From a virus, in the IMG/VR virus record IMGVR_UViG_3300012933_000155, positions 1 through 64,000 of that record: a stretch of 64,000 nt of DNA. One strand, 5' to 3'. Under the pieces are notes generated by a model. That model was not told where the DNA came from. It made no database searches and worked only from the letters and a program-made list of their open reading frames with translations. The position numbers and the translations under genes were made by a program. Below, piece by piece: positions 14,313-47,937 of the stretch (its first letter is position 1; the number at the start of each line of letters is the position of its first letter).

Positions 14313-17300
14313 ATGGTAACACGAATTAGAACGATTGATTTTCTGCCAGAAGTTTTTAAGACTAAGACTAACGAGCAGTTCCTAAGTGCAACTTTGGATC
14401 AGTTAGTTAAGCAACCCAACACTGAAAAAGTTCAGGGTTACATCGGTAGTAAGTTCGGGTATGGCGTAAAGACTGATGATAGTTATGTCGTTGAAAAGAG
14501 TAAAAGTCGTAATGATTACCAACTAGAGCCGGCAATTGTTTTTAAGAAAACAGGTACCAACGAAGTAATTGATTTGATGACGTATGAAGGCATGATTGAT
14601 GCCCTGAGAAACGAAGGCGGCATTGTAGAAGACAATAATCGTTTGTTCTCTAACCAGTTCTATTCTTGGGACAGCTTCACTGACCTAGATAAGTTGATTA
14701 ACTACGGACAGTACTACTGGTTACCTAATGGTCCAGAGTCTGTTGGTGTTACTAACGCAAGCGTTTACTTTAACGTAACGTATGATGTTACTAAGGGAGC
14801 GAACTCATATGACTTCGCTGCGGACACTGTACCGTTGAAGACCTCTAACCCAACGTTGTCGTTAATGCGCGGCGGTACTTATACCTTTAACGTTAGCCAA
14901 GATTCTCCTTTCTATATTCAAGGTGCACCAGGAATCAATGGAACTGATCCTGCTAGACCCAACATCAATACTCGTGATATTTTAGGTCTATCTGAAAATG
15001 GTGTGTCGGAAGGTACGTTCACCTTTACTGTCCCGTTTGCTAACGAACAAGATAACATGAATTTCCCGGGCAACACTGAAGTAGATTTAGTGACTCGTTT
15101 ATCATTTGACCAGGTTCACGGCAAACCTGTACGTGAGTTAAAATCTATCGATGGCATTACATCGTTAGATGGTAAGACTTTGCTTTTCTTTGGTGCAAAG
15201 CAAGATGACCGTGGCTACTTGGGCGACTTGTTTGCCAGCACACCTTTTGGTGTTGATAACCCTAATGCTAGTTCAACTGACGTTTTCGAAGACGGTCAAT
15301 ATACTAACATCGCTGACAACATCTATCAAATTACCTATCAAGGTACAGGGTTAGATGCAGTTATTTCACTTGTAGAATTCCACCAAGTACCTAATAACCA
15401 AAAGATAACCGCCGTATACGGTGAAGAATTCATTGCTAGAACTTTCATTAAGCCTAGCTTTGGTGACTTATACATGATTCCGTTTTTAAGCGCAAGACTT
15501 GATACTCTGTATTACCAAGACGGTAGTAGTGACGGCGTGTTCGGCAAGATTAGAATCTTAGAACAATTATCTGACTACACCATTGATGTACAAGACGACA
15601 TCATCGGACAAAAGACATACACTAGTCCTAACGGCGTTCGATTCACAAACGGATTGAAAGTTAACTTCTCTGGGTTCATCTATCCAGAAACTTATAAAAC
15701 AGGTAATTACTATGTTGAAGGTGTAGGCGAAAGTATTAATTTAATACCAGTTGACGAGTTGGTCGTTCCAGAACCCTTCACTGAAAACTTTAGTAGCCCA
15801 TTTGAAGTCAAGGCTTTTGACTTAGAATCATTCGGTTCTGCATTGTCAGTGCCTACTTCGAAAGACTTCATAACTATCAATCGTAATAGCAATGATAGAA
15901 ACGCTTGGAGTAGAAGCAACAGATGGTTCCATTATGACGTTTTGGCTCAGACGATTGAGCGTAACCCTAACAGCCCTATCGCACAGGCAGCACTTAGTGG
16001 CACCACTGCAAGAGCTAACAGACCCATCATCGAGTTCTACCCTAACCTACGATTGTTCAATCACGGGACTGAGTACAAAGCACCGGTTGACTACATTGAT
16101 TTCACTTCAACAGACGCACTCAATACTATTCCAGGTAATACTCAGATTTTAATTGACGGTCAACTATCTGATATCTCTGATGGCGCACGAATTATATTTG
16201 CCGCAGACAATAACGTTGAAGTCCGTGGTAAGATATTTGTAGTTACTAATACCAAAATTACTGAAACAGGCCCTAGTACAATAGTATTGTCTCCGGCTAC
16301 TGACGGAACAGTGAATGCTGACCAACAAATTATTATTACCACTGGTGCGAATCAAGGTAAGTCATTTTACTTTGACGGCACTAACTGGATAATGAGTCAG
16401 CAAAAGACTCTAGTAAACCAGCCTCCTAAGTTTGACATTTTTGATTCTAACGGAATTAGCTTTAGTGCTCAGGAATATTACCCAGGTTCTGACTTCAGTG
16501 GTTGTACACTATTCGAATTTGCCACTGGTGTCGGTGCAGATGATCCTGTCTTAGGAATCCCTTTAGCCTATAGCTCTGTTGAAAATATCGGAGACATTCA
16601 ATTCAATATCTCATTGAATAGCGAGTCATTCTCGTTTACTGACGGTTTAACATCTAGAACTTTTCCTGTAAGTTATGGTTATGTTTACAAGTATTCAGAC
16701 AGAACAACATATGCTCGTCAAATCGGATGGCAGACAGCCGCAGGTCCTAGCTTCCAGTATCAAGTTTTCAACTATACAGGTACTGACTTATTGGGTCCTG
16801 ACTTTCAGTGCGATATCATTCCAAAGGATCAAGCAGACTCAGCATGGCCTGTACTAGTGGTATATCTAAACAACACTCGTTTGCTACCTAGCGAATACAC
16901 AGTGACCTCAGTTAGTGGGAAGACAACCGTTAGCATTCTTTCATTCACTTCTGCTGATTCAGTTCAGATTATGGTATACAGCGACCAAGTGAGTAAGATT
17001 GGTTACTACCAAATTCCTGACAACTTTGATAGCAACCCTTTCAACTATCCAGTCACATCAGTTCACTTAGGAGACGTCCGCGGTCATTTTAAGAGTATTT
17101 GTAACAACAGGTTAGACCTAGTAGGTGACTCGTTTGGCGCAAATAACTACCGAGACTTAGGTAATGTGGTTCCCTATGGAACAAAAATTATTCAAAACTC
17201 AGGCTCAATGGGTACCCCTGCGATTTACCTTAGAAATAAAGAATACAATATTTTTGACTCATTATCATATAACGCTAATGAGTACATTAAGTTCAAGGCA

Positions 17301-20300
17301 TTACTAGTCAACACCGTAACGAACGGTGACTATAACACCTACCAGCAAGTAGATGAGATTTTAGATGACGTACTTAATAGTATTGCTGCAATCCGTAGTG
17401 AAAGCAATCCGTTCTATTGGAGTGACATGGTTCCTTCAAAGAGCCCGGTCGTCAACAAAACATACCCAATCGCTAACGTAATCAATAAAGTAGATTACCC
17501 ACTGAGCCGAATTTATAGTTTTACTAAAGCTAACTATTATTCAGTTTTAGTATATGTAACTACCACAGTCGAAGGTGTTAAGACAAAGAATCAACTAGTG
17601 AGAGATGTTGACTATGTAGTTAGCGAAACAGAACCTAAAGTAACGTTGACATATAATCTTGCTGCCGGTGATGTAGTTAACATCAAAGAGTACGACCAAA
17701 CGTTTGGTAGCTTTGTTCCTAACACCCCTACTAAGAATGGTTTGTATCCAAAGACAGAACCTGAAATTGAGACATACACAACTTACTTAACTCCAACGTC
17801 ATTCATCGTTGGTCATGATAACTCATACACTAAAACATACGGTGATGTAGTTAACGGTGAACTAACTGACTTACGTGATAAAGTATTGTTTGAATATGAA
17901 AAACGAGTATACAACAACCTTAAAGTAACTGCTAAGATTCCGTTGTTACGAGAAGATATCTTCCCTGGACAATTTAGAAAAACTGAGTTCTCTTATGAAG
18001 AAGTACAACAGTTGTATGCTACACAGTTCTTGAACTGGGCTGGACAAAATAGAATCGATTATAAATCTCAGTTCTATTCTATGACAGAAGATTTTACTTG
18101 GAACTACAATCAGGCTAGAAACAAATTAGATAACACTGAGCTGAAGCAAGGTAACTGGAGAGGTATTTACATTTGGTTGTATGATACGCACAGCCCTGAC
18201 TCTTCTCCTTGGGAGATGTTAGGTTACTCATCTAAGCCATCTTGGTGGGTTAGCCGTTATGGTTCTGCACCTTATACTAGTGAGAACGATTTGCTATGGG
18301 GCGACTTAGAAAAAGGCTTCGACTACAACGACGGTGCCTCTTTCATCAATCCTAAATTTGCAAGACCCGGACTCTCTCAAATTTTACCAGTAGATACTCT
18401 GGGTAGATTATTGCCACCGTCTATGTCTACAGTTGGGTATTCAGAAGCAGCTAACTACAATCGTAGTTGGAAGGTTGGAGATGTAGGTCCTGCAGAATTC
18501 AGCTACTTAAAGAGTAGCACTTGGCCCTTCGATTTGATGCGAATATTCGCTTTGACTAAGCCTCCTGTATTCTTCACCCAAGGTCTTGATTTAGACTCTT
18601 ATCGTTATAACGAAGAATTTAATCAATTCTTGGTGTTTGACAGATTCCGAGCTGCTCCTAGCGACTTGGTAGTATACGGTGGCGGCACTGGAAAAACAAG
18701 AGCTGAGATTGAGGGATATGCTTCCCACTCTATTAACTCATGGGTCGTAGATTATTTGCGTCAGTTTGGTATCTCTGGTAGTAATGATATTGCAAACATG
18801 ATTAAAGAGATTCAGGTGAATTTAGTATATCGTGTTTCAGGCTTTACTGATAAAGATATGATGAAGTTCTACATGGAAAAGGGAAGCCCTAACAGCAAGA
18901 ACAGTTCATTGTTGATACCTGAAGAAAGCTATAGCATCTTATTGTATGAGAACCAACCGTTTGATAAAATTACATATAGTAGTGTAATCGTACAAAAAAC
19001 TGAAAACGGTTATACTGTTAGCGGTAATAGCCAAGACAGAGCATTCTTCCAAACATTAGTGCCAAAGTCAAATGGTAGTTTCGAAGAAATCGTTGTCAAC
19101 TCAGTATCTATTAAGATTCCAAAAGACGCATCAAATGATGTTGCGATAGTTCCCTACGGTACTGAATTCTCATCATATCAAGGTGTATGTACTTTCTTAG
19201 CTAACTACGGAAGATTCTTAGAATCACGTGGTATGGTCTTCGACACATTAGAAAACAACATCCAAGTTACTTGGAAACAGATGGTCAATGAATTACTATA
19301 CTGGTTAACTTCTGGATGGGAAGTAGGTAGTATTGTAAGTATTAACCCTGCAGCTAATGAGCTAGTAGTTAATAGAACTGAGAGTGTAGTTCAATCATTG
19401 ACATTATCAAAGCAAAATTATGCGTTGGATCAAAATCTAATTCCTATCCAACTTAAAGATTTAGGCGTCTATCGCAGCGGTACCGAGTTTAGACTTACTG
19501 CATTGAGTGATAAACAAACTATCTCTTACTTCTCTGCTGGACTAAGCAACGTTGAGCACGTAGTAGTTTTCGACAACACTACTATCTTTAATGATACTGT
19601 CTTTAACGTAGTCACTGGATTGCGTCAACAACGCTTGTTTGTTCGCGGCATTAAAACGGCTGATTGGGACGGCACGTTCGATACTCAAGGTTTTATTCTT
19701 AACCAAGATAACGTAGAGGACTGGCAAGAGAATCAAAAGTATACTAAGGGTGTAATCGTCTTCCACAAGAACAATTACTGGGTTGCTAACACTATGATTC
19801 AACCTAATGTTGACTTCACTAAGCAAGATTGGATCAAAACAGATTATGAATTAATCTCTAAAGGAATGTTACCTAACGCAAGTACTCGTGCATTTGAAAG
19901 CACGTTATACTATGATGCTGCCAGAAGCAATTTAAACAGTGACGCTGATTTACTGAGCTTCTCGTTAGTGGGATATAGACCTAGAGATTACTTGTCTCAA
20001 GCAAACATTACTGACATTTCCCAGTTCAACATTTTCAAAGACATTATTAAGTCAAAGGGAACGTTCAACAGCATTAACATCTTGAATGGTGCGGAACTTC
20101 CACAAGGTACTGTAAACTATCAAGTTTATGAAAACTGGGCAATCAAGAGTGCCGAGTACGGTGGTTTGGTAAATCAAAACTTTGTTGAGTTTGGATTGAA
20201 CAAACAATTACTAACTGGTAACCCTAGCATCGTTGGATTAACTTCAGGCTATGAAGTACCTGGTGTACAGCAACATGTAACTTTAAACAACATCACTAAT

Positions 20301-23300
20301 TACGCTAAGAGCACTAGCAGTGAGAATATCTTGTCAACCTTAGCTGACCACAGCAAAGAGACTGAGATTCTTCGCTCTGCCGGTTATGTAAATTTTGACG
20401 ATGTTGACTTTACTGCGTTTAACTTGTCAGAGTTATCTAGTGCGACAGCAAGCGCAATCTACAAGAATGATTACTTATGGGTCGCTAACCATAAAAATGA
20501 TTGGGACGTTTTCTCTCCTACATCAATCATAAACAACAATCAACCGGTCCATCTAATTAACGTTGCTAACAACTTAGACGGCACCGCGACATTCACATTT
20601 GACAATCAACACAATCTAACAACCGATTCGTTGTTAGTGATTATGAATTTTAATTCTACTGTCAATGGCTTCTATACTATTGCATCAGTTACAGGATTAA
20701 GCTCAGTAGTGGTCTCCCTATCACTTGATGGGTCAGTTACTACCTTATCTGGTTTCGGAATGGCTATTCAATTACAATCACATAGATTGTTAACCCCTAG
20801 TGATGTTAAGTATCTACCATTACTAGATAATGAGTTTGTAAAGAACAAAGCATGGATCGACTACGGCACTGACGGTAACTGGGCAGTATATAGCAAAACA
20901 AATAACTATACCCCAGTAGACGCAAGCGTAATTGGTTCGACTGAAACATTTGGTAACAGCGTATCGTATCACCCTAAGTTAGGATATTTCTTCGCAGACG
21001 GTGGCTCAAGAAAAGTCTATAGAGCGGCATACGATGAGGCATTAGGAACATTCTCTACACTGGAAACGCTACAGCCGTTGTTCAACAGAGTATCTCCGTT
21101 GACATTTGGTAAGAAGATTGTCGTTCAAGGTGACATGCTTATCATTTCTCAGCCAGATAATTTTGGTACAGATAGTTTTCTTTGGATCTACAAGCTAGTA
21201 AACACTGACAAAGTTAAACGTGCCGTATACCAACAATATATTTGGGTATCAGGTGGCGGCATCGGTGAGCATATGGTAATGTCTGGTGATACCAACTATC
21301 TATATGCAAGTGCTAGTTCTTATAGTGGTGCAGTTGTGTTCCAGAAGAATGTATTACCGTTCTTAGATACGACAGGTATCTTGTTGAGCGTAGCTGCTCC
21401 AGTTGGCGCAACATCATTTGTTGTTCCCGGAAATCGTGTAGCTGACTTGCCAGTAGGTGAAGACATTACGTTTGCAAACGATGATAAAGCACCAACATAT
21501 ATGTTGGTTACAAGTCGCTTCAACAGTGCAGCTAACGCTACTACATTCTACATTGATAAACCTCTAACCGAAGAAATTAGTGTAGAAACACAAGTCTACA
21601 CTTCATCAATTAACTATTCATTCGTCGGAGCATTCACTGCAGGCAATGACCCAACTGACGGTTTCTCGTTAGCAATGACAACTACTCACAACGGCGACAT
21701 GGTCTTTATCGGTGCGCCTAGCTATGACTTTAGCGAGTTCCAGACTAACACTGGTATGGGTTATGTGTTCGAGCGTTTGTCTGAAACTTTTGAAATTAAA
21801 ACAGATAGTCCACCATTAACTAATACAGTATTAGTTGTGCCTTGGGTTACTTCTGCTGGTACTGTATTATCTATTAACGGTGTACGTTATGATACTGTAC
21901 TAGCCGGTACTCGTGCGGCACCAGTATGGGTCTACCCTGACTCATTAGTTGAAGGAGCAACAGTATTGTTAGTTGGTCCTGACTTATTCGCAGGTGACCG
22001 TGTAACAGTTGATTCTGTAAACATGGTTGAGAAGCAAGTAATCAGTGCTTACGATACTTCTAGTCAAGTGGTATCAGGTGCGATGTTTGGTCATGGTATG
22101 GACTGTAACATAAGCGGAGCTGACTTGGTAGTAGGTGCTCCTTACTTCATCGATGAAAAGGGTGTCGAAGGACATGTATACCGCTTCATCAACGAGGGTA
22201 AGAAATATGGTGTCATCAATGGATTGTTACCGGTAACTCTTGCAGAGCCAGTTGATATCTTAATCAACCACTTTAGAATTTCTATCCCTGCAGGAAATGC
22301 AAAGGCAGTTGCTGACGCAATTAACTTGAATGCGCTAGACAACATTGTAGCAGAGGCAACGGACGACACAAACGAAGGTAAACTAGTAATTAGATTGCGT
22401 GATCCGAGCTTAGGTCCTGTCAACAACAAATTGACATTGACGGTGTTCAACGGTAGCATACTATATTACTTAGGTATCAGTGAGTATACGAAGACTCAGG
22501 TTATTTCTAGCCCACATGCTGAAAAAGGTTCTCAATTTGGATACAATGTTGCGTTCAACGAATACAACTCGTTCATCGTTAGCGCACCAACAGGGACTAG
22601 ATTCTTAGGAACAACGTTCGACTTCACTGATGATGAAAACAATCACAATGATACTGCGTTTGATAATAACTTCACACAATTTGTAGACTTTGCTGACCAC
22701 GCAGGCGAAGTATACATGTATGATTATATGCCTGGATATAACGAATCTTTGTTAAATTCTGGTAACTACGTATATGCACAGGCATTGACTGATAGTGTTG
22801 CGGATACTGGCATTAAGCCAATGTACGGCAAAGCATTATTCTTTAGACATAATAAAGTTATTGTAGGAACACCTGACTTTAAACCAGCAGAAGTTGGCGG
22901 CAAAGCAACGGTCTTTAATAACTCATCTAACACATCTAACTGGAAAGTTGACCGCATAAGCGCTCCAGTAGTTGATGTTAATAAAATTCAGAAAGTTCAA
23001 ATTTTTGACAGTGCATTGAATTCAATGATTGCTCCTTTAGACTACATTGATCCTATTCAAGGTAAACTATTAGGTGCAGTGAGAGAGAATATTGACTTCG
23101 TATCATTCACTGACCCTGCAGGTTACAATAGTACTGCGGGTACAGGAAATATCGCTTGGGGTAAAATGAATGTAGGTTCTATCTGGTTCGATCCATCTAG
23201 CACTCGCTTCGTTAACTACCATCAAGGCGACACATCTTACAATAGTAAGTACTGGGGAAAGGTATTCCCTGGTAGCACAGTCACCGTATATACATGGATC

Positions 23301-26300
23301 GAGAGCGATACTACTCCTGCATTCTACGTAGGCGCAGGTTCTCCGTACGATGTTGAGAGCTATTCAGCTTCATATGATGTTGACTCTACTGGTAACTTGA
23401 TTACGAAATATTATTTCTGGGTAAGAAACACGAATGTAGTTTACTCGTTAGCTGGAAAGACTCTATCTGATTCTGTTATCGAATCATACATCAGAGATCC
23501 ACAAGCTACTGGTATACCTTACTTTGCTGCTTTCTCACCTAGCACGTTTGGTCTATATAACGTCACTGACCAGTTAACGTTTGACTCTAGTTTGTATATC
23601 GGTTTCAGTAACACCGTTGCTGATAACCCATCACACTCATCATTCCAATTAATTAGAGATGGTGCACCTGATGATTTCTTATCTGGCTTCCCGACAGCAT
23701 TGAATAACTACAGCGACCCTACTGGGTTGTACTTGAAGCTGCTTGACAGCTTCGCTGGATTAGACACAGCTGGATCACTAGTACCTAATCCTAATCTTCC
23801 ATCAATGTTAAAAATTGGTATCAGCAACAAACCTAATCAAAGTATGTTTGTTGATAGATTGAAGGCCCTTAGAAATTATCTAGTCTATGTTAACCAAGTC
23901 TTGAAGTTGTATCCAGTATACGAATTCAAAGAAGCATCGTTCTTGAACAATGCAGGCGCAACATTTGATACTACTAAGTATTGGAACTACGTCAATTGGT
24001 GGGCTACCGGTTACAATGACAACACTAAATCATTAGTTGATGTTGGTCGCTACTATGAGTTACAGACCCTAGATACATTCGAGGGCATGATTGTAGGAGT
24101 CCAGTCTAACAGTAATGGTCGCAGAGAAACATACATCCGCACAAATAATGAATGGGTCCGAATCGGTTTAGAGAACGGAACTATTGAATTTAGTTCAGCT
24201 CTTTGGAACTATAGCACTAACTCAATTGGCTTAGGTAGCAGTTTCTTTGATACTGATAGTTACGATACATACCCGTCTGCGGAAACTCGTAGCGTTATCC
24301 GTGCTATCAACGAGCAGATTTTTGTAGGTGAATTGTTCAAGTTCAGAAATGAAGGCTTGATTCTAATGTTTGAATACATTCAGAGCGAGAATATCGAATC
24401 ACATAACAACATGCCTTGGTTGAATAAAACGTCCTTCATTGACGTAGGTAATACAGTACGTGAGTTGATTGCGTATCCTAAGTTCCAGAAAGATGATGAC
24501 GAATTGCTATATGGCTACATCCAAGAAGCTAAACCATACCATGCAGTAGTTAAGGACTTCTTCATGCGTTATACAGGTTTAGAGACTTATAACAGTGGTG
24601 TGACAGACTTCGATTTGCCATCAATATACAACCAGTCTTTGTATAAGTTTACTTCGCCAGAATTAGTGTATTCTACTGCTGGTACTAATCAATACACTCC
24701 TGGCGATGCTATATGGGAAACTCAAGAGTATTCTAATTGGTATAGCAATCTTGGCTTGAAACTACAAGGTGATAGCAACGCTGAAGTAGCGTTGGTTGCA
24801 AAATACATGACTGTCACTGACAACGTGATTTTTGTTGATAACGCATACGGGTTACCAGTACAAGGCCTAGTTAAAATTGATGACGAGTTAATTGCTTACT
24901 CTCATGTAAACAGAGTATTAGGTAGGTTAGAAGGATTAAGCAGAGGATCTTCTGGTACTACTATCACAGAGCACTTCCCTACAGCAAGAGTTTACATGAC
25001 GTTGCCGGGTGTCGTTGTTGTAGATACTGGTAGAGGCTACATTGACCCTCCTGCTGTACGTGCAATTATTGACACTACAAAATATCCAGCACCAACTCGT
25101 GCTGCTGCGTTGACTGCCATCATGTCAGGTGATAAAGTTATCGGTGTAACAGTTAACGATTCAGGTGAGGGCTATGTTGCTGTACCGACAATTTATATCG
25201 AGCCAGCACTATCAGTTCAGTTCAATACTGCTGACATCAACTTTGCTGACAACACTATTGTTGTACCAACTAACAAATTTGTGACAGGTGACTTAATTAG
25301 ATATGTTGACTTGAACTACGGTGTAGTCAACGAATTGAAAGTTACTGGCTTAACGCATAACACTTTCTATTATGTAAACATTATTTCTGCATTGGGCGAT
25401 GACGCATCATTGATTACGTTACATAGAGCGTATGCGCAAGCACAAACAGGTGATAATCCTATCGAATTGTATACTAAGAATCAATTAGGAAGTAGTATCA
25501 TCACAACATTTGATGATGCACCTGAATATGCACTAGAGATTGCCGCTAAAGCAGCATCAGTGACTAAGAATACTAGAGTACGTGAACTAACTACTAAGAT
25601 TCGTTACGACCGAACAAGCTATGGATCGACAGTTCAGAACTGGGAACCAGGCATGTTCTGGCCTAGCCCGTTTAACTCTTTAGGTAACGACGCCTCTTCA
25701 ACTACTAAAATATATGATGCGCAAGCTGACATAACTCAAGCTAGTTGGCAAGGTGCTATGTTAGACATCACTGGTGTAAGTGATGACCAAGGTACAGTTG
25801 TTGCAACAGTTGATTATAGTCACAGTAATGGTCTACAACCAGGACAAATCAAAGGCTTGAAGATGTATTTCTACAAGACTTTCCCTGGTTATCAATATGA
25901 TGACACTGCTAACGGCGGTGCTAAGTTCAAGATTTTCAGACCACGTTTCGACCCAACAGGAATCGTCAACGCATACTATATCGTTCTAGAAAACTCTGGT
26001 ACAATATATTCTGACGGAGATGTTATTAAAGTTAACGGTTCGGAACTAGGCGGTAGAGACGGCTTGAACGACTTTATTTTGACAATTCAATATGTCACTA
26101 TCCAGAACGGAATCAGTATCTATGCGCTCGAAGGTATTGCAGTAGGCGAGTTTAAGATGTATTATGCAAACCCTGTTGCGCAAACACAGATTAAGATTTA
26201 CACTGACCCTTCATTTAGAGTACCAGTATTGTATGACACATTCACATTTGGTGCCGGTGATTACGTCTTCTTACCAGAACCATTCTCGACTAGCGCAGGT

Positions 26301-29300
26301 TACAAATACGTTGTTGCTGCTACAGTTGTATATGAGAATAAAGTCTATCGTTGCGTTGAGAGTAACAGTGACATGACATTCGATTACAATAAGTGGGCAG
26401 AAGTTAAACCAGATGACCGCTCATTGAATGCAATTGACAGAGTATTGAGTTACTACAAGCCTACAGCTACGATGCCAAACAACTTGTTGCAAGTAGTTCA
26501 GGGAATAACTTATCCATACAATGTATATCGTGGTAATGCGTTTGCAGAAGACGAGGCACTGCCTCTTGATATCGTATTGAAAGACACACCTTTCTATCCT
26601 AGAGATGTCAACATCACTTCTATCACACACGACGGCATTAACTATATTGCAACCGCTGACGCAGCTAGTCACTCACTAGTGTTGGTCAGCACTGATGGAG
26701 AGATTTGGAACACGTATAAAATTTCTAATAAAGTTTTGAACTTAACAGGAATCGCTACGACTGAATCTCCTAGCTACATCATCACATCTAACACAAACAC
26801 TGCTCCTGTTATGATTAGTTTCGACATTCAGAACTGGGAGACATTGGGTGCGTACACTCCGTATGACGTAATTATTTTCGGTGAGTCAGGCTTCGATAGT
26901 TCAGGCATTCAAGCACCTAAAGGGTCGATGAATAGTATTGCTAAGTTGTACGGAGAATTCTTCGCCGTAGGTAGCAACGTCATCAAGAGTTCTAATGGCT
27001 TATCTTGGGAAGCTGCATTTGACTTTGGTAGCAGTCTACCTAATACTCTAACTAGCGTAGTAGCTGTAGAATCTATGTTCTTCGCTGGTCTAGTTGCAGT
27101 AGGTTACGGTCTAAAGGTAATCAGCGGCGCAGGATCTGCTGCCCCTGTGATTGAGCAAGTTGGTAGAGTAATCACATCAACTGACGGCATTACATGGAAA
27201 GTCATCGATCCCGCATTCACCGGAGAAGAACTACACACTGTAGCTGCCTCAGATACAGTTATCGTAGCTGCTGGAACAAACGGAAAAGTATTCTACTCAA
27301 ATAACGGAGAGATTTGGTATCCTGCAAACGTTAACGGTCAAGTTCTAACTCATACGATTCGTTCAAGCATTTATGCTGACTCAACATTCGTATTAGTTGG
27401 AGACAACGGCACAGTGATAACATCATCTGATGGTATTGAATGGTATCAACATTCTTCAACTACAACTTCGAACCTAAACGGTATCACGTTTGACGGTGAG
27501 TATTTTGTTGCTGTAGGAGACTATGGTGTAATTATCCGCAGTAGAAATCAAGGAGAGACTTGGTTAGATGTATCTTTCATTACAAGTAAAGTTCCTTCAT
27601 ATTCTATTCAAGGTGATGACTTCGTTTCTGGATATGGTCCAGAAGAATTAGTCGCTGGCGTAGTTACTGATACATTGAACATCAAAGTTGTAACTAAGCC
27701 CGGCGCATTCTGGGACAACGATGAGATTACTCAGTCGTTTAAATACGGACACACTGGTTTCGGTATGAAGTCAAAGACATTAGTACCAGACTTTACTAAT
27801 ACATTCAGCTTCGACGGGATGCTAGACAACCCAGTTCAAGTTGCAGTGTTTGTTGAAGACAAGGTTTCTGGTTTGTCTACACGCTTGTATGAGACATATG
27901 GCTATACAGTTAACTGGGTTACTAAGGTAATCACATTAAACGACCCAATCGATTCAACTAAAACTATTCTAGTTGAAGTGTATGACTATGGTAACGGAAG
28001 AGAAATCGCACGTGCTAACTCTCAGAACACTCCGGCAATCATTGAAGAAGAAACTGGACATACTCAATTCTTGTTATTAAATTACACGTTCGTTCAATCG
28101 TTCAACTTACGTAATCTAACTACAGTAGATATTGACCCTGTGATTTATCACAACGGTGTTAAACTTGCAAATGATAAGTTTTCTGTTGCAATTGTTCAAA
28201 ATGGAACATTGATTTCGTTCACTGACACATATGACTTAGAAACAGACTATCTAACCTTCATTCTAATGAGTAGCACAGTTGTACCTGAGTTCAACGATTT
28301 GTTGTATGGATACAGTCTTCCAGAGACACAAGTGTTTGAATATGTTGATTCTTCTGAATTCGAGATAGCAAACTATATCGGCAACGTTAAAGAACTAAAC
28401 TACGCAGTAGTCGAAGACTTCAACGATGGCAACACCTACGCAACTATGGGATATGACAATCCAGGCTTCAGTGCATTCAATGTTGGTGATAAGGTAACTA
28501 TCACTGGAATGTTACCAACTGATTGGAACGCAGTGAATGCAACTATTACACATATCTCTACTGCAAACGGTGGCGCTACAAGAACATTCTCATATGTTAT
28601 TGGAAGCACATATTCTACTGCTACAGAGTTTGGTACAGCGCATAACGGATATACTGCTGCGACTGCAAGCGTTGTAGAAGTTAACGGTGAGCGTCTAGCT
28701 TCTACTGACTATGAAATTGATGTATTCACTGCGACATTGACTGTTTCGGCAGCATTGTCGTCTGGTGACTTAGTTGCAATCACAACGTTCAACGATTTCC
28801 AAAGACAGAATCTAGTAACTACTGAAGTTACTACATTGCGTGTAGCACCTATCTATTATATCGACAATACTACGACACCTATTCTAGTAACTACTAGCGA
28901 GGATCACGGTATAGTGGACGGAGATAACATCAGATTAGATGGTATCAAAGGTTCAGTACAGTTGAATAACGCTACTTACTATGCTAAGGTTCTTTCTTCA
29001 TATACTTCGAACGGTAAAACATACTACCCTGTAGAATTATATGAATCAGTATCAACGTTCGGTGGCAATTTAGTATTTGCGTTACCAGTCTCTGGTTCTA
29101 CTGTTGAAGCATATGACGTTAGTGGTTATCTATGGAAGAACACAGATACTGTGACAGTTACTAGCGGCTCAACATACACTGAAGGTTCTAGAACTTGGGT
29201 TACAGTGAACGGCAAACGGGTAGATCCTAGCAACTTGAGATTCAACAGCAATAACAAGTTAAGTATCATGGCTCCGATTGTACCCACTGACTCAGTGATA

Positions 29301-29969
29301 ATTACTGCAATGGTATCTGAAGCTACTCCCGGCTCAATGATTTACAACGTATCAGTTGATAAGTTGGGTAACGGTAAGATTCATCGTTTGACTAATGACG
29401 TTTGGTTAACACAATCGTTGTTCGCTTATGAAGATGTTATCCATGTCAACAACGCTAGATTACTAGTCAACAATATCGTTGAAAACTTAACTGCTATCAC
29501 TGAGTCCGGCTCAGTTGTAGCTAAGTTGAACTACAAGATTGAAGATATGTCCGGTGTTGTCGTGTACAATGCAAGCACACTATTGACTTTAAGTAAGGAT
29601 GACTACGTAGTTAAGAACGTTAACTCTCGTCCTACTGTAATCTTTACTGCTGGCGTTTCTGAGGGTGATAATCTTCAAGTTACTATTCAAATCGGTCACG
29701 TTGTTACTATCAACGGTGAGCAGATTAGATTTAGAGCGGTTGACTTCACAACTAACACTGTTTCAGGATTGATTCGTGGTATTAACGGTACTGGTATCAA
29801 GAAAACGCACGATGTCCACTCGTTTGTTCATGGAATGAATGATGCGACTATGCTAGATCCAATCTTCTATGATAACGTTTTGAACAGTAGTAACTATACT
29901 GCTAAGGGCGACCCAATGCAGATTAGCGATAGCCCTGCAGCGAAGTTCCTGCAAACGGGTCATTATTGA
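14313..29969 (+). CDS. Giant (5218 aa) multidomain baseplate/virion structural protein
   Basis: Uninterrupted ORF after gp6; contains FG-GAP-like blades (FGHGMD..LVVGAP), seven Asp-box SxDGxxW repeats and FCCH-like beta domains. Confidence 0.8.
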   Translation: MVTRIRTIDFLPEVFKTKTNEQFLSATLDQLVKQPNTEKVQGYIGSKFGYGVKTDDSYVVEKSKSRNDYQLEPAIVFKKTGTNEVIDLMTYEGMIDALRNEGGIVEDNNRLFSNQFYSWDSFTDLDKLINYGQYYWLPNGPESVGVTNASVYFNVTYDVTKGANSYDFAADTVPLKTSNPTLSLMRGGTYTFNVSQDSPFYIQGAPGINGTDPARPNINTRDILGLSENGVSEGTFTFTVPFANEQDNMNFPGNTEVDLVTRLSFDQVHGKPVRELKSIDGITSLDGKTLLFFGAKQDDRGYLGDLFASTPFGVDNPNASSTDVFEDGQYTNIADNIYQITYQGTGLDAVISLVEFHQVPNNQKITAVYGEEFIARTFIKPSFGDLYMIPFLSARLDTLYYQDGSSDGVFGKIRILEQLSDYTIDVQDDIIGQKTYTSPNGVRFTNGLKVNFSGFIYPETYKTGNYYVEGVGESINLIPVDELVVPEPFTENFSSPFEVKAFDLESFGSALSVPTSKDFITINRNSNDRNAWSRSNRWFHYDVLAQTIERNPNSPIAQAALSGTTARANRPIIEFYPNLRLFNHGTEYKAPVDYIDFTSTDALNTIPGNTQILIDGQLSDISDGARIIFAADNNVEVRGKIFVVTNTKITETGPSTIVLSPATDGTVNADQQIIITTGANQGKSFYFDGTNWIMSQQKTLVNQPPKFDIFDSNGISFSAQEYYPGSDFSGCTLFEFATGVGADDPVLGIPLAYSSVENIGDIQFNISLNSESFSFTDGLTSRTFPVSYGYVYKYSDRTTYARQIGWQTAAGPSFQYQVFNYTGTDLLGPDFQCDIIPKDQADSAWPVLVVYLNNTRLLPSEYTVTSVSGKTTVSILSFTSADSVQIMVYSDQVSKIGYYQIPDNFDSNPFNYPVTSVHLGDVRGHFKSICNNRLDLVGDSFGANNYRDLGNVVPYGTKIIQNSGSMGTPAIYLRNKEYNIFDSLSYNANEYIKFKALLVNTVTNGDYNTYQQVDEILDDVLNSIAAIRSESNPFYWSDMVPSKSPVVNKTYPIANVINKVDYPLSRIYSFTKANYYSVLVYVTTTVEGVKTKNQLVRDVDYVVSETEPKVTLTYNLAAGDVVNIKEYDQTFGSFVPNTPTKNGLYPKTEPEIETYTTYLTPTSFIVGHDNSYTKTYGDVVNGELTDLRDKVLFEYEKRVYNNLKVTAKIPLLREDIFPGQFRKTEFSYEEVQQLYATQFLNWAGQNRIDYKSQFYSMTEDFTWNYNQARNKLDNTELKQGNWRGIYIWLYDTHSPDSSPWEMLGYSSKPSWWVSRYGSAPYTSENDLLWGDLEKGFDYNDGASFINPKFARPGLSQILPVDTLGRLLPPSMSTVGYSEAANYNRSWKVGDVGPAEFSYLKSSTWPFDLMRIFALTKPPVFFTQGLDLDSYRYNEEFNQFLVFDRFRAAPSDLVVYGGGTGKTRAEIEGYASHSINSWVVDYLRQFGISGSNDIANMIKEIQVNLVYRVSGFTDKDMMKFYMEKGSPNSKNSSLLIPEESYSILLYENQPFDKITYSSVIVQKTENGYTVSGNSQDRAFFQTLVPKSNGSFEEIVVNSVSIKIPKDASNDVAIVPYGTEFSSYQGVCTFLANYGRFLESRGMVFDTLENNIQVTWKQMVNELLYWLTSGWEVGSIVSINPAANELVVNRTESVVQSLTLSKQNYALDQNLIPIQLKDLGVYRSGTEFRLTALSDKQTISYFSAGLSNVEHVVVFDNTTIFNDTVFNVVTGLRQQRLFVRGIKTADWDGTFDTQGFILNQDNVEDWQENQKYTKGVIVFHKNNYWVANTMIQPNVDFTKQDWIKTDYELISKGMLPNASTRAFESTLYYDAARSNLNSDADLLSFSLVGYRPRDYLSQANITDISQFNIFKDIIKSKGTFNSINILNGAELPQGTVNYQVYENWAIKSAEYGGLVNQNFVEFGLNKQLLTGNPSIVGLTSGYEVPGVQQHVTLNNITNYAKSTSSENILSTLADHSKETEILRSAGYVNFDDVDFTAFNLSELSSATASAIYKNDYLWVANHKNDWDVFSPTSIINNNQPVHLINVANNLDGTATFTFDNQHNLTTDSLLVIMNFNSTVNGFYTIASVTGLSSVVVSLSLDGSVTTLSGFGMAIQLQSHRLLTPSDVKYLPLLDNEFVKNKAWIDYGTDGNWAVYSKTNNYTPVDASVIGSTETFGNSVSYHPKLGYFFADGGSRKVYRAAYDEALGTFSTLETLQPLFNRVSPLTFGKKIVVQGDMLIISQPDNFGTDSFLWIYKLVNTDKVKRAVYQQYIWVSGGGIGEHMVMSGDTNYLYASASSYSGAVVFQKNVLPFLDTTGILLSVAAPVGATSFVVPGNRVADLPVGEDITFANDDKAPTYMLVTSRFNSAANATTFYIDKPLTEEISVETQVYTSSINYSFVGAFTAGNDPTDGFSLAMTTTHNGDMVFIGAPSYDFSEFQTNTGMGYVFERLSETFEIKTDSPPLTNTVLVVPWVTSAGTVLSINGVRYDTVLAGTRAAPVWVYPDSLVEGATVLLVGPDLFAGDRVTVDSVNMVEKQVISAYDTSSQVVSGAMFGHGMDCNISGADLVVGAPYFIDEKGVEGHVYRFINEGKKYGVINGLLPVTLAEPVDILINHFRISIPAGNAKAVADAINLNALDNIVAEATDDTNEGKLVIRLRDPSLGPVNNKLTLTVFNGSILYYLGISEYTKTQVISSPHAEKGSQFGYNVAFNEYNSFIVSAPTGTRFLGTTFDFTDDENNHNDTAFDNNFTQFVDFADHAGEVYMYDYMPGYNESLLNSGNYVYAQALTDSVADTGIKPMYGKALFFRHNKVIVGTPDFKPAEVGGKATVFNNSSNTSNWKVDRISAPVVDVNKIQKVQIFDSALNSMIAPLDYIDPIQGKLLGAVRENIDFVSFTDPAGYNSTAGTGNIAWGKMNVGSIWFDPSSTRFVNYHQGDTSYNSKYWGKVFPGSTVTVYTWIESDTTPAFYVGAGSPYDVESYSASYDVDSTGNLITKYYFWVRNTNVVYSLAGKTLSDSVIESYIRDPQATGIPYFAAFSPSTFGLYNVTDQLTFDSSLYIGFSNTVADNPSHSSFQLIRDGAPDDFLSGFPTALNNYSDPTGLYLKLLDSFAGLDTAGSLVPNPNLPSMLKIGISNKPNQSMFVDRLKALRNYLVYVNQVLKLYPVYEFKEASFLNNAGATFDTTKYWNYVNWWATGYNDNTKSLVDVGRYYELQTLDTFEGMIVGVQSNSNGRRETYIRTNNEWVRIGLENGTIEFSSALWNYSTNSIGLGSSFFDTDSYDTYPSAETRSVIRAINEQIFVGELFKFRNEGLILMFEYIQSENIESHNNMPWLNKTSFIDVGNTVRELIAYPKFQKDDDELLYGYIQEAKPYHAVVKDFFMRYTGLETYNSGVTDFDLPSIYNQSLYKFTSPELVYSTAGTNQYTPGDAIWETQEYSNWYSNLGLKLQGDSNAEVALVAKYMTVTDNVIFVDNAYGLPVQGLVKIDDELIAYSHVNRVLGRLEGLSRGSSGTTITEHFPTARVYMTLPGVVVVDTGRGYIDPPAVRAIIDTTKYPAPTRAAALTAIMSGDKVIGVTVNDSGEGYVAVPTIYIEPALSVQFNTADINFADNTIVVPTNKFVTGDLIRYVDLNYGVVNELKVTGLTHNTFYYVNIISALGDDASLITLHRAYAQAQTGDNPIELYTKNQLGSSIITTFDDAPEYALEIAAKAASVTKNTRVRELTTKIRYDRTSYGSTVQNWEPGMFWPSPFNSLGNDASSTTKIYDAQADITQASWQGAMLDITGVSDDQGTVVATVDYSHSNGLQPGQIKGLKMYFYKTFPGYQYDDTANGGAKFKIFRPRFDPTGIVNAYYIVLENSGTIYSDGDVIKVNGSELGGRDGLNDFILTIQYVTIQNGISIYALEGIAVGEFKMYYANPVAQTQIKIYTDPSFRVPVLYDTFTFGAGDYVFLPEPFSTSAGYKYVVAATVVYENKVYRCVESNSDMTFDYNKWAEVKPDDRSLNAIDRVLSYYKPTATMPNNLLQVVQGITYPYNVYRGNAFAEDEALPLDIVLKDTPFYPRDVNITSITHDGINYIATADAASHSLVLVSTDGEIWNTYKISNKVLNLTGIATTESPSYIITSNTNTAPVMISFDIQNWETLGAYTPYDVIIFGESGFDSSGIQAPKGSMNSIAKLYGEFFAVGSNVIKSSNGLSWEAAFDFGSSLPNTLTSVVAVESMFFAGLVAVGYGLKVISGAGSAAPVIEQVGRVITSTDGITWKVIDPAFTGEELHTVAASDTVIVAAGTNGKVFYSNNGEIWYPANVNGQVLTHTIRSSIYADSTFVLVGDNGTVITSSDGIEWYQHSSTTTSNLNGITFDGEYFVAVGDYGVIIRSRNQGETWLDVSFITSKVPSYSIQGDDFVSGYGPEELVAGVVTDTLNIKVVTKPGAFWDNDEITQSFKYGHTGFGMKSKTLVPDFTNTFSFDGMLDNPVQVAVFVEDKVSGLSTRLYETYGYTVNWVTKVITLNDPIDSTKTILVEVYDYGNGREIARANSQNTPAIIEEETGHTQFLLLNYTFVQSFNLRNLTTVDIDPVIYHNGVKLANDKFSVAIVQNGTLISFTDTYDLETDYLTFILMSSTVVPEFNDLLYGYSLPETQVFEYVDSSEFEIANYIGNVKELNYAVVEDFNDGNTYATMGYDNPGFSAFNVGDKVTITGMLPTDWNAVNATITHISTANGGATRTFSYVIGSTYSTATEFGTAHNGYTAATASVVEVNGERLASTDYEIDVFTATLTVSAALSSGDLVAITTFNDFQRQNLVTTEVTTLRVAPIYYIDNTTTPILVTTSEDHGIVDGDNIRLDGIKGSVQLNNATYYAKVLSSYTSNGKTYYPVELYESVSTFGGNLVFALPVSGSTVEAYDVSGYLWKNTDTVTVTSGSTYTEGSRTWVTVNGKRVDPSNLRFNSNNKLSIMAPIVPTDSVIITAMVSEATPGSMIYNVSVDKLGNGKIHRLTNDVWLTQSLFAYEDVIHVNNARLLVNNIVENLTAITESGSVVAKLNYKIEDMSGVVVYNASTLLTLSKDDYVVKNVNSRPTVIFTAGVSEGDNLQVTIQIGHVVTINGEQIRFRAVDFTTNTVSGLIRGINGTGIKKTHDVHSFVHGMNDATMLDPIFYDNVLNSSNYTAKGDPMQISDSPAAKFLQTGHY
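26640..27570 (+). repeat. Seven Asp-box/BNR repeats (beta-propeller) within the giant protein
   Basis: STDGEIW, SFDIQNW, SSNGLSW, STDGITW, SNNGEIW, SSDGIEW, SRNQGETW. Confidence 0.8.
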
Positions 29970-44995: not shown

Positions 44996-45024
44996 TTGAC
45001 ATAATCCTATGGGTGTGTTATAGT
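44996..45024 (+). promoter_or_regulatory. Consensus sigma70 promoter for tmRNA
   Basis: TTGACA-17 nt-TATAGT with TG extended -10; predicted +1 near 45031. Confidence 0.88.
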
Positions 45025-45030
45025 ATGAGT

Positions 45031-45403
45031 TATTGCTGTATGAAGCAAAGAGAAAAGTGTTCTGGACGCGGGTTCGACTCCCGCCAGGTCCACCAGCAAG
45101 AATACTGTTCGCACCAAATAATTGCGAAAAAATAGTGGCGTAGTTCTAGACTATGGATCATTAGCAGTATTCTTACTAATGGGCCTGTCATGGTTTCGAC
45201 AGGGCAACAAGTAAACAAGTGGACAGCAGGGTAATGTGAAAGCCCTTAGGATTGGGGGTAAGAGTACAGTAATGTCATGTCAATATGATATCAGTATTTC
45301 CCGGTCGCAGAAGCAAAAAACTTAAATGCAAATGACGAAAGTTACGCATTGGCCGCTTGATAAAAGCGTCCTGGGGTAAGACATACCTCGCAACAGAAAC
45401 TCA
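45031..45403 (+). ncRNA. ssrA: Circularly permuted (two-piece) tmRNA: acceptor piece ~45031-45095, intervening segment 45096-45180, coding piece from 45181
   Basis: The T-arm and CAGGTCC-A-CCA 3' end (45061-45095) lie upstream of the 5' end GGGCCTG-tcatggtttcgac (45181). The acceptor stem pairs 7/7 with the G3-U70 alanine determinant, and the tag ORF encodes ANDESYALAA. Confidence 0.93.
45328..45360 (+). other. tmRNA proteolysis tag reading frame (A)ANDESYALAA-stop
   Basis: gca aat gac gaa agt tac gca ttg gcc gct tga taa, preceded by the resume context aaacttaaat. Confidence 0.92.
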
Positions 45404-45431
45404 GAAAAGGCTCTTCGGAGCCTTTTTCTTT
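45404..45431 (+). terminator. Rho-independent terminator after ssrA
   Basis: GAAAAGGCTC-TTCG-GAGCCTTTTTC hairpin with a UUCG loop and U-tract. Confidence 0.9.
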
Positions 45432-45477
45432 GTCAACGTAATGTAAGGCAAAGGCGTTGTATATATAAGGAGCTTAT

Positions 45478-46089: not shown

Positions 46090-46455
46090 ATGTCAAATTT
46101 AGGTTGTTTTACTTGTTTAAGTTGTGGAAAAGTTAATCCTATCAAAGGTCACTCATACACTAACAAGTACTGTAATAATAGTTGCCAACAAGAACACCAA
46201 CGCAGAAACAAGGCGTTTGAGAATGTTCAGAAATGGAAAGAATCAGCTACGCCACAAGCGTGGGCAAAGATTCCCGAGTGGGTAAGACAGTACTTGATTA
46301 ATCAAAGAGAACATCGTTGCCAGGAATGTGATAACACACATCATAACGGTCTAGCTATCCCATTAGATGTAATCTATAAAGATGGTGACAGTTACAACAA
46401 CAAAGAAGATAATCTAATGTTGATATGCCCTAATTGCAAGTCACAAAGAAAATAA
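46090..46455 (+). CDS. HNH-fold zinc-binding protein with a degenerate active site
   Basis: CLSC, CNNSC, CQEC and LICPNC retained; the LEVDHIDG..NN..NL..LCPNCH consensus appears as LDVIYKDGDSYNNKEDNLMLICPNCK. Confidence 0.75.
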   Translation: MSNLGCFTCLSCGKVNPIKGHSYTNKYCNNSCQQEHQRRNKAFENVQKWKESATPQAWAKIPEWVRQYLINQREHRCQECDNTHHNGLAIPLDVIYKDGDSYNNKEDNLMLICPNCKSQRK

Positions 46456-46479
46456 TTCATTAACATAAAGGAAATTAAA

Positions 46480-47025
46480 ATGAAAACAATCGGCGATAAA
46501 ATCACAAGTTTTGCAGTCACAGGCGTTAAGCCAGGCGCACTCACACCAGATGGCGCATTCGAAACAATTACTGAAAAGAGTTTTGAAGGCAAGTGGAAAG
46601 TAATTGTTTACTACCCAAAGGACTTCACATTCGTGTGCCCAACTGAAATCGTAGCATACGACAAATTGAATGGCGACTTCGCAGACCGCGATGCTGTTCT
46701 AATGATTGGCTCTACTGATAATGAATTCTGTAAGTTGGCATGGCGTAATGCACATGAAGACTTGAAGAAGACTAACTCATGGTCATTCGCAGACGTGGCA
46801 CGTGATGAGAACAGCTTGGCAGAACAATTGGGTATCTTCTATGGTCCAGCAGGTGCGGCACTTCGTGCAACATTCATCGTTGACCCAGACAACATCATCC
46901 AACACGTTACAGTCAACAACTTGGACGTTGGTCGTAACCCAGACGAAGCATTGCGTGTACTTGACGCATTGCAAACTGGCGAGTTGTGCCCATGCTCACG
47001 CCCAATCGGTGGAGAAACATTGTAA
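46480..47025 (+). CDS. ahpC: Alkyl hydroperoxide reductase subunit C (peroxiredoxin)
   Basis: YPKDFTFVCPTE peroxidatic motif; LRATFIVDP; GRNPDEALRVLDALQTGELCPC. Confidence 0.95.
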   Translation: MKTIGDKITSFAVTGVKPGALTPDGAFETITEKSFEGKWKVIVYYPKDFTFVCPTEIVAYDKLNGDFADRDAVLMIGSTDNEFCKLAWRNAHEDLKKTNSWSFADVARDENSLAEQLGIFYGPAGAALRATFIVDPDNIIQHVTVNNLDVGRNPDEALRVLDALQTGELCPCSRPIGGETL

Positions 47026-47543
47026 TGACTGCTTGGGTAGACGCACTTAAAGAGTCTAGTATTCCTGACTATGCTAAGGATACTAAACTAAACATTGACG
47101 CTGTAATTAAGCGTAGTACTCTACCTGTTGAAGAAGCGGAAGCTGTTGCCCTCGCGGCAGCTTTTGCTACTGGCAACAGTAAGTTGTGGACTTGGATGGA
47201 AAGTCAAATTGAAAACAAGACTGAAACACAAGCCGCATTAACAGCAGGTGCATTGATGGCACAAAACAACATGTGGTATCCATTTGTTGAAATGGCTGAC
47301 GATGAGAACTTGAAGGGCTTGCCCGCACAACTTCGCATGAACGCTATCACAACAAGCGGTGGCACAACTAAAGAACGATTTGAAGCATATTCATTGGCTG
47401 CAAGTATCGTTGGTAAGTGTCACTTCTGTGTGAAAGCACACTACGAAGGATTGAAGAAGATGGGCTACACTGTAGAACAACTTCGTGATATCGGTCGCAT
47501 TGCAAGTGTCATTAATTCAGTAGCAAAAGTGGTAGCAAACTAA
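47025..47543 (+). CDS. ahpD: Alkylhydroperoxidase AhpD (start ATG 47025, TAATG-coupled to ahpC)
   Basis: IPDYAKDTKLN, ALMAQNNMWYPF, AQLRMN, FEAYSLAASIVGKCHFCVKAH (CxxC). Confidence 0.93.
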   Translation: MTAWVDALKESSIPDYAKDTKLNIDAVIKRSTLPVEEAEAVALAAAFATGNSKLWTWMESQIENKTETQAALTAGALMAQNNMWYPFVEMADDENLKGLPAQLRMNAITTSGGTTKERFEAYSLAASIVGKCHFCVKAHYEGLKKMGYTVEQLRDIGRIASVINSVAKVVAN

Positions 47544-47544
47544 A

Positions 47545-47937
47545 ATGGCAAACATGGCAGAGTACTTTGAAAAGAATCGTTATCATGGCTCATATGAGTT
47601 CGGTGAACGAGTTTTCGGTTATTACAATAAGATTCCTTTCATTGGCTCTGTCGGTAGTGACAGTGTAAGGAGTATGGATGAAGGTCCTATCATCACTGTC
47701 ACACTTGATTTGCCCATTAGTGTTGATGGACAATCAAAAAATGTTATAATTGTAAAACACAAAGACATTAAATCTTTGTTGAGAGATTACGATGCGTCGG
47801 GAGTTCCAAAGGCCGGAGCGACTGATTCTAAACCAGTAGGTAGTGGGTTCAATTCCCATCCGACGCACCAAGAACAACCAAAGTCTAATAGTAAATCACT
47901 GTTAGAAAACTTAAAGAAACTTAAAGGTAAAAAATAA
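47545..47937 (+). CDS. Hypothetical protein whose 3' third is overprinted on a tRNA gene
   Basis: 130-aa ORF coupled to both neighbours; codons ~84-109 lie within the tRNA. Confidence 0.65.
   Translation: MANMAEYFEKNRYHGSYEFGERVFGYYNKIPFIGSVGSDSVRSMDEGPIITVTLDLPISVDGQSKNVIIVKHKDIKSLLRDYDASGVPKAGATDSKPVGSGFNSHPTHQEQPKSNSKSLLENLKKLKGKK
47794..47870 (+). tRNA. tRNA with CUA anticodon (amber suppressor type), 77 nt, encoded CCA, amino acid unknown
   Basis: Acceptor GCGTCGG/CCGACGC-A-CCA; D stem GTTC(C)/(G)GAGC with GG in the loop; anticodon stem ACTG-A/C-CAGT around loop TT-CTA-AA; variable AGGTA; T stem GTGGG/CCCAT with loop TTCAATT. Confidence 0.85.

Follow-up and report, generated by a model that had tools for sequence, protein, structure and literature searches.

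A predicted amber-suppressor tRNA gene nested within the reading frame of a small phage protein gene

The whole 64,000-nucleotide stretch of DNA analysed here, called the window, makes up the first 64 kb of one contig of 135,078 bp (40% GC), which appears to come from an uncultured, freshwater, tailed phage. We followed up a sequence-only reading of one small coding sequence (CDS) in this window; the features found there are given in Table 1. That reading had placed a 77-nt tRNA wholly within a stop-free open reading frame (ORF) of 130 codons, and ARAGORN and the ORF listing bear this out. The tRNA occupies codons 84-109 of the CDS, with tRNA base 1 falling on codon position 1 of codon 84, and the tRNA-coded peptide is the same as had been written. 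The TAATG junction at the end of the frame, also described earlier, is seen in the ORF listing, in which the TAA of the ORF overlaps the ATG of the gene starting at 47937. As a whole the CDS encodes a beta-barrel core joined by a linker to a basic C-terminal helix.

Table 1. Features of the tRNA-bearing gene and its surroundings. Positions are those of the window.
Feature	Position	Strand	Basis
CDS of a small phage protein, 130 codons	47545..47937	+	ORF listing; homologs; core pN/pS 0.31
Conserved core, codons 1-83: N-terminal helix and SH3-like small barrel	47545..47793	+	Profile; AlphaFold2 (AF2)
Candidate sigma-70-type promoter: TTGATG, 16 nt, TG-extended TATAAT	47723..47750	+	Consensus scan (10/12 matches); conservation
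Predicted amber-suppressor tRNA, anticodon CUA at 47828-47830, encoded CCA	47794..47870	+	ARAGORN; Rfam; covariation; fold in transcript context
Post-tRNA tail: variable basic linker, then conserved C-terminal helix motif LLENLKKLKGKK (47896-47934)	47871..47934	+	pN/pS; synonymous changes; whole-codon indels; modelled helix 115-127
7-bp RNA hairpin inside the tail, 3' arm in Leu-Leu-Glu codons	47884..47906	+	Kept in ten relatives
Stop/start overlap TAATG with 81-aa membrane protein gene 47937-48182	47935..47939	+	ORF listing; similar junctions in relatives
Likely tRNA client gene, AAGGAG ribosome-binding site (RBS), TAG as codon 5 (48251-48253)	48239..48814	+	TAG kept in relatives

Upstream, positions 46090-47543 hold an HNH endonuclease-like ORF (PHROG matches) followed by an AhpC/peroxiredoxin-like gene and, overlapping it by 40 nt, an AhpD/CMD-like gene, so that two auxiliary redox genes lie immediately 5' of the tRNA-bearing ORF, whose ATG is 1 nt past the stop of the CMD-like gene. 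The CMD-like gene is syntenic in three relatives (L161, L166 and L168). A phage tmRNA of the circularly permuted (two-piece), beta type lies 2.3 kb upstream of the tRNA at 45003-45451, with the tag ANDESYALAA and a near-consensus promoter at 44996-45024; it scores 107 bits with the Rfam tmRNA_permuted model and 103.5 bits with beta_tmRNA, and is also found by ARAGORN. The tmRNA is at the same place in L001, L002, L006 and L008, and is present too in L066, L072 and L073, which are without the tRNA. Further upstream, 14313-29969 is one ORF of 5218 codons, probably a giant structural or fibre protein, with ORFs of 898, 1088 and 1122 codons before it. Downstream, the stop of the 81-aa gene is directly followed by a GC-rich hairpin (GGGGCA..TGCCCC, 48189-48202) without a T run, which may act in processing or attenuation; it lies just before a TATAAATA (T4-late-like) box at 48204, upstream of the client gene.

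No Pfam or PHROG family was found for the ORF, and an Atlas search with it returned unnamed viral clusters only. In a search for cultured relatives, 50,697 phage records had no tblastn match to the ORF, and blastn of 46400-48900 against deposited phages matched solely an ahpC-like piece of a Ralstonia phage. Relatives were found as 89 clusters in a set of 5.8 billion proteins, 109 IMG/VR loci and 265 metagenome loci. Four freshwater metatranscriptome runs contain the region as contigs of relatives 88-99% similar, none of which spans the tRNA; a joint of 47759 to 47936 seen in two of the runs belongs to a diverged relative and was set aside.

The core is the sole part of the protein found in most homologs. 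Its profile of 85 positions was built from 130 representatives (50% identity), mostly 78-85 aa long; most family members have 77-85 aa and end a few residues past KHKDIK, with long forms of about 114-146 aa in the minority. The earlier proposal that the protein core ends near KDIKSLL is thus upheld. Its companion claim, that the remainder is an extension through the tRNA, holds in part: the C-terminal portion does run through the tRNA, but the segment that follows is selected protein and more than an extension, as described below. AlphaFold2, given a 79-sequence alignment, confidently modelled a helix and beta-barrel over residues 4-77 (pLDDT 80-93 over 11-80) and a further helix at 115-127, with pLDDT below 50 only at 83-103, which is the tRNA-coded part. 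The best fold matches of the core, to Tudor (Z 8.1, 60 residues aligned, rmsd 2.4) and CAP-Gly domains (Foldseek E-value 1.2e-3), are in a range common for such searches, and the modelled core appears to be a generic SH3-like small barrel (Tudor/CAP-Gly/KOW-like) that indicates no function. If the model is right, the disordered linker can be where the protein best tolerates foreign constraints.

In the DNA retrieved for the long forms, wherever a CUA tRNA starts 240-249 nt past the ORF start, it is read through in one frame; these embedded loci are the window, L001-L006, L008, L081-L090, L093 and L162-L168. Other layouts also occur. One relative (L054) has a TAA 1 nt before the tRNA. In another (L139, 957-1030) a 74-nt tRNA begins inside the conserved core end, placed in another frame; the ORF continues for 12 nt past this tRNA. 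In eight more (L012-14, L018, L077, L097, L099 and L118) the tRNA ends 8-12 nt upstream of the ORF's ATG, and most family members have no tRNA nearby. A tree of the 76-column core is poorly resolved and places the embedded state in clade A (with L161 inside it), in L004/L005, in the strongly supported clade C and in L139; its well-supported branches force at least two changes of this state.

Two types of tRNA occur at the site, of 77 and 74 nt, which differ by exactly one codon. In L165 and L166 the core and tail are near-identical to those of L001 and the window, yet the tRNA is of the 74-nt type. A 74-nt tRNA between near-identical flanks indicates that the tRNA cassette was exchanged with the frame preserved, and the tRNA at this site is, by this comparison, mobile. 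The block that diverges between L165/L166 and L001 runs from about 20 nt upstream of the tRNA through the tRNA 3' end. A further relative, L161, has no tRNA, yet it shares the gene order (CMD-like gene, ORF, small gene) and the C-terminal motif. As the tail also occurs in this gene that has no tRNA, the tRNA is placed in a linker that joins two elements of the protein. The L161 linker, compared for a possible decayed tRNA, has a match of ~11 nt to the anticodon-loop region, too short a basis for that reading.

The tRNA scores 45.3 bits against a gathering score of 29 (Rfam RF00005) and is the single tRNA that ARAGORN finds in the whole 135-kb contig. The tRNAs embedded in relatives score 33.9-61.9 bits with Rfam, including that of L008, which ARAGORN missed. 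Among the 18 distinct embedded variants, which are related by descent and hence not independent events, the 7-nt anticodon loop TTCTAAA (U33, purine at 37), the T loop and the CCA are invariant. Standard pairs fill 95% of cells of the cloverleaf pairing, compared with 37-46% when the 3' partners are slid, and 8 of the 19 tRNA pairs show changes on both sides, with all four stems kept by compensatory changes. Two departures from regular pairing were seen: pair 31-39 is an A-C or C-A mismatch in every variant, and several of the 74-nt variants have one mismatch in the acceptor stem. Synonymous-site divergence (pS) is 0.16 inside the tRNA against 0.41-0.52 in the flanking codons, as expected from a second constraint. 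Judged by these patterns the tRNA fold is under selection; its processing, aminoacylation and suppression are predicted functions.

The same stretch behaves as coding sequence. Not one ORF-frame stop occurs in any of the 18 distinct embedded variants, against 0-4 stops in the two other frames, and each of the seven free-standing CUA homologs is interrupted, in the frame equivalent to that of the ORF, by 1-2 stops, most of which are the anticodon-loop TAA. Within the tRNA, pN/pS is 0.29 in the ORF frame as against 2.7 and 0.69 in the others. The sequence-only reading had suggested examining whether substitutions in relatives preserve base pairing or amino acids, and they preserve both, the pairing through compensatory changes and the amino acids through the low in-frame pN/pS. 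An example is the compensatory pair at tRNA columns 30-42, which lies at third-codon positions on both sides, is synonymous and has changed in two clades.

The tail beyond the tRNA also carries the signature of a protein. Its length varies among relatives (25, 28, 67, 70, 73, 82, 85 and 124 nt), and every value is 1 mod 3, that is, the indels are of whole codons; when the long tails are shuffled, they are open in 4-22% of cases. Pairwise pN/pS in the tail is 0.24-0.25 in the ORF frame and 1.8-1.9 and 8-11 in the other frames, next to 0.31 for the core, and its variable columns number 6, 6 and 15 by codon position. Over the last nine codons of ten sequences, all eight variable columns are synonymous, where 17% of single changes would be expected to be so, and they include Leu TTR/CTR exchanges. 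In the relatives compared, the interval from the tRNA to the C-terminal motif has no conserved in-frame start, so ribosomes that make the motif must have crossed the tRNA. Two proteins that deviate after the tRNA (P0011 and P0016) come from single low-coverage contigs with junk-like continuations; we regard them as assembly or frameshift noise and not as counter-examples. By these substitution patterns the post-tRNA tail is under protein-level selection, purifying selection acts on the shared stretch in both of its readings, and the overlap is more than chance and not an accident of ORF calling. We are fairly confident that it is a genuine case of dual coding, in which a suppressor tRNA and a protein linker would be specified by the same nucleotides.

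Part of the tail conservation has another source. The tail hairpin has seven pairs, two of them with compensatory changes, and is also present in the tRNA-less L161; it may mark a processing or stabilising site. The conservation of the tail is partly, not wholly, attributable to this hairpin, and some of it may act at the RNA level. The hairpin enters into the first of the alternatives to be weighed, namely that the read-through is functionless: the real protein would be the core of about 83 aa, the tRNA would simply follow it without a stop, run-on ribosomes would be tolerated and, once RNase P has cut, perhaps removed by tmRNA of the phage or the host, and the tail would be conserved for RNA reasons (the hairpin, the tRNA 3' trailer and the RBS of the next gene). 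Such a reading would account for the many homologs of about 80 aa that have no tail, for the relative with the same layout and a stop 1 nt before the tRNA, for the presence of both a conserved hairpin and the next gene's RBS in the tail, and for L004 and L005, in which only 7-8 codons follow the tRNA. It does not account for tail substitutions that are protein-like in the ORF frame, among them Leu TTR/CTN exchanges outside the hairpin, nor for the whole-codon indels, the same tail in a gene without the tRNA, or the frame kept across the exchange of 74- and 77-nt tRNAs. We consider functionless read-through unlikely.

The core CDS also holds a candidate promoter. Its predicted start, near 47757, would give a leader of ~37 nt before the tRNA, and the sole better promoter site in the region is that of the tmRNA. 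Promoter-like sites in the region number 10 compared with 10.9 in shuffles, and a single site is not significant alone. Conservation provides a further line of evidence. The -10 hexamer is formed by Val-Ile-Ile codons of the core and is an exact TATAAT in 62 of 95 distinct family members; the Ile at this site is ATA in 69% of cases compared with 23% elsewhere in the same genes, and the Val before the two Ile codons is GTT in 86% compared with 29%. Three relatives (L004, L054 and L139) have a perfect TTGACA-17-TATAAT. With presence defined as at least 5/6 and at least 4/6 matches, the site was found in 24 of 24 members with the tRNA downstream, in 36 of the 84 that have no tRNA and in 1 of the 4 whose tRNA lies upstream (distinct sequences, which are not phylogenetically independent); in L161 it is absent, as is the tRNA. 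The minimum-energy fold of 47757-47940 includes the cloverleaf (z = -3.2). The tRNA thus probably has its own transcript, from a promoter inside the core CDS. With an internal promoter and an untranslated transcript, competition between tRNA and protein is not forced, and the earlier claim that each polycistronic transcript yields either tRNA or protein, so that ribosome traffic could tune suppressor output, is not supported as stated: the conserved internal promoter offers a tRNA transcript that is not translated. Competition on long transcripts is possible.

A transcript starting at 47757 could instead be translated from an internal start just before the tRNA (TTG TTG at 47776-47781, ATG ATG in relatives with the 74-nt type), giving a separate peptide of about 50 aa in place of, or besides, the 130-aa fusion. 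In clades A and C, TTG or ATG codons do occur in frame at 4-6 codons ahead of the tRNA, with the predicted transcript start about 20 nt upstream of them. However, no clear RBS precedes these codons, L004 and L005 have no start codon there, and in all cases the frame runs on unbroken from the core, a continuity that a separate peptide does not need. We therefore think an internal start very unlikely.

If the tRNA is a functional suppressor, the client gene is its likely target. It lies 370 nt downstream, with its RBS 7 nt before the ATG and 186 more codons after the TAG. All 19 distinct relatives among the loci examined retain a TAG, somewhere from codon 3 to codon 6. The family has 1310 hits and no Pfam domain; phages of Rhizobium, Sinorhizobium and Agrobacterium show weak, partial matches. 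In four relatives (L018, L097, L066 and L155) the client gene comes directly after the small core ORF, and this adjacency indicates that the core ORF, the tRNA and the amber-gated gene form a linked module.

Across the contig, the stops of 149 non-overlapping ORFs are TAA in 100, TGA in 48 and TAG in 1. The sole TAG-ended ORF (contig 132216-133073, outside the window) is followed by 116 more in-frame codons to a TGA and is possibly another client of read-through. With code 11 the coding density is 95.6%, and with TAG as sense it is 95.3%, few ORFs gaining from read-through; given the equal density and the few TAG genes, the phage is not a code-15 phage. A genome with one tRNA, TAG near-absent as a stop and a conserved in-frame TAG appears to need that tRNA. 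As to the amino acid inserted, Gln at the TAG position, as suggested by Q in about 70 database homologs, was considered and rejected: both of the proteins that were traced (P0090 and P0185; loci L169 and L170) translate only with TAG=Q, from code-15 gene calling. The acceptor stem (G1-C72, C2-G71, G3-C70, A73) does not fit the E. coli Gln identity rules. That the cloverleaf is a relic, or a tRNA-like sequence co-opted as coding DNA with no functional suppressor, might be read from the non-canonical G8/C14, the 31-39 mismatch and the acceptor-stem mismatches of some relatives, but is scarcely credible given the compensatory changes in all four stems, the invariant T loop, anticodon loop and CCA, a substitution rate below that of the flanks, and a genome in which this is the sole tRNA, TAG is rare as a stop and a client gene keeps its TAG.

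We have good confidence in the following explanation taken as a whole. The protein would consist of a beta-barrel core of ~83 residues, a disordered linker and a short basic C-terminal helix, with the tRNA gene filling the linker in frame. The tRNA would be made mainly from the sigma-70-type promoter in the last third of the core CDS; as this internal transcript has no ORF start, no ribosome need cross the tRNA on it. RNase P and 3' trimming would release the tRNA, leaving a transcript that carries the RBS and the membrane-protein gene. Full-length protein would come from longer transcripts that start upstream, in the ahpC/ahpD-like operon, and escape processing. The tRNA would serve to read the phage's few in-frame TAGs, above all codon 5 of 48239-48814. 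How the two products are partitioned we infer from the sequences.

A bolder proposal is that the nesting is a built-in switch and not mere compaction. On long transcripts, tRNA folding and RNase P cleavage would compete with unwinding ribosomes; cleavage would leave a core mRNA without a stop, and its product would either receive the tag of the phage tmRNA or be set free as a core-only isoform. How much full-length protein, core-only protein and tRNA is made relative to one another, and with it how far the amber-gated gene is opened, would then reflect the state of translation in the infected cell. We rate this proposal as doubtful.

The nested tRNA together with the downstream conserved TAG would be part of a compact translational control module in a widespread freshwater phage group. 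The locus offers a natural system in which constraints of RNA structure meet those of a protein, apparently solved by a disordered linker and by stem covariation on third-codon positions, and it allows tests of how a transcript is partitioned between translation and tRNA maturation. Because annotation pipelines forbid or trim overlaps of tRNA and CDS, such genes would be mis-called. The candidate promoter inside the core CDS is a new observation.

Co-transcription of tRNAs with mRNAs is well known from the E. coli tyrU-tufB operon and the T4 tRNA cluster, from which the tRNAs are released by RNase P/RNase E. As there, tRNA and mRNA would here share one transcript and be separated by processing; the tRNAs of those systems lie between coding regions, whereas here the tRNA is inside one. 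Phages with recoded genomes (code 15 or 4; Borges et al., bioRxiv 10.1101/2021.08.26.457843; PMC9523058) resemble this one in that they encode a CUA tRNA, seldom use TAG as a stop and have TAG codons in frame within their genes, and differ in that here the code is essentially standard and TAG is confined to one or few genes. The present phage resembles the standard-code phages with a suppressor tRNA that are discussed in the Borges et al. preprint, whose text makes no mention of an overlap. Dual-function RNAs (SgrS/SgrT, RNAIII/hld, tmRNA) and overprinted viral genes (PMC8227390) likewise have one stretch with two selected functions and third-codon positions that absorb the RNA constraint. In dual-function RNAs, however, the coding and the structured or base-pairing parts are mostly separate, and overprinting involves two protein frames, whereas here a whole structural RNA gene is read codon by codon.

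In the literature searched we found no phage or bacterial precedent for a tRNA nested on the sense strand of a CDS, and a complete, functional-looking tRNA nested in a selected frame is undescribed there for either; the nearest cases are in compacted mitochondria. In Armadillidium vulgare, mitochondrial tRNA genes are reportedly nested in, or largely overlap, protein genes. A passage of PMC7062073, citing Doublet et al. 2015, reports a nested tRNA in Armadillidium mitochondria, and a putative tRNA-Pro-like sequence lies within the octocoral MutS gene (PMC11353228). As in our case, a protein gene there contains a tRNA or tRNA-like gene in the sense orientation, and the transcript region has two possible fates. 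They come from reduced, extremely compacted genomes in which aberrant tRNAs are frequent, and the octocoral example is putative, whereas the present one is in a 135-kb phage with ordinary gene spacing and, unlike the mitochondrial cases, combines a canonical-length suppressor with CCA, selection on both readings across relatives and an apparent dedicated promoter in the CDS.
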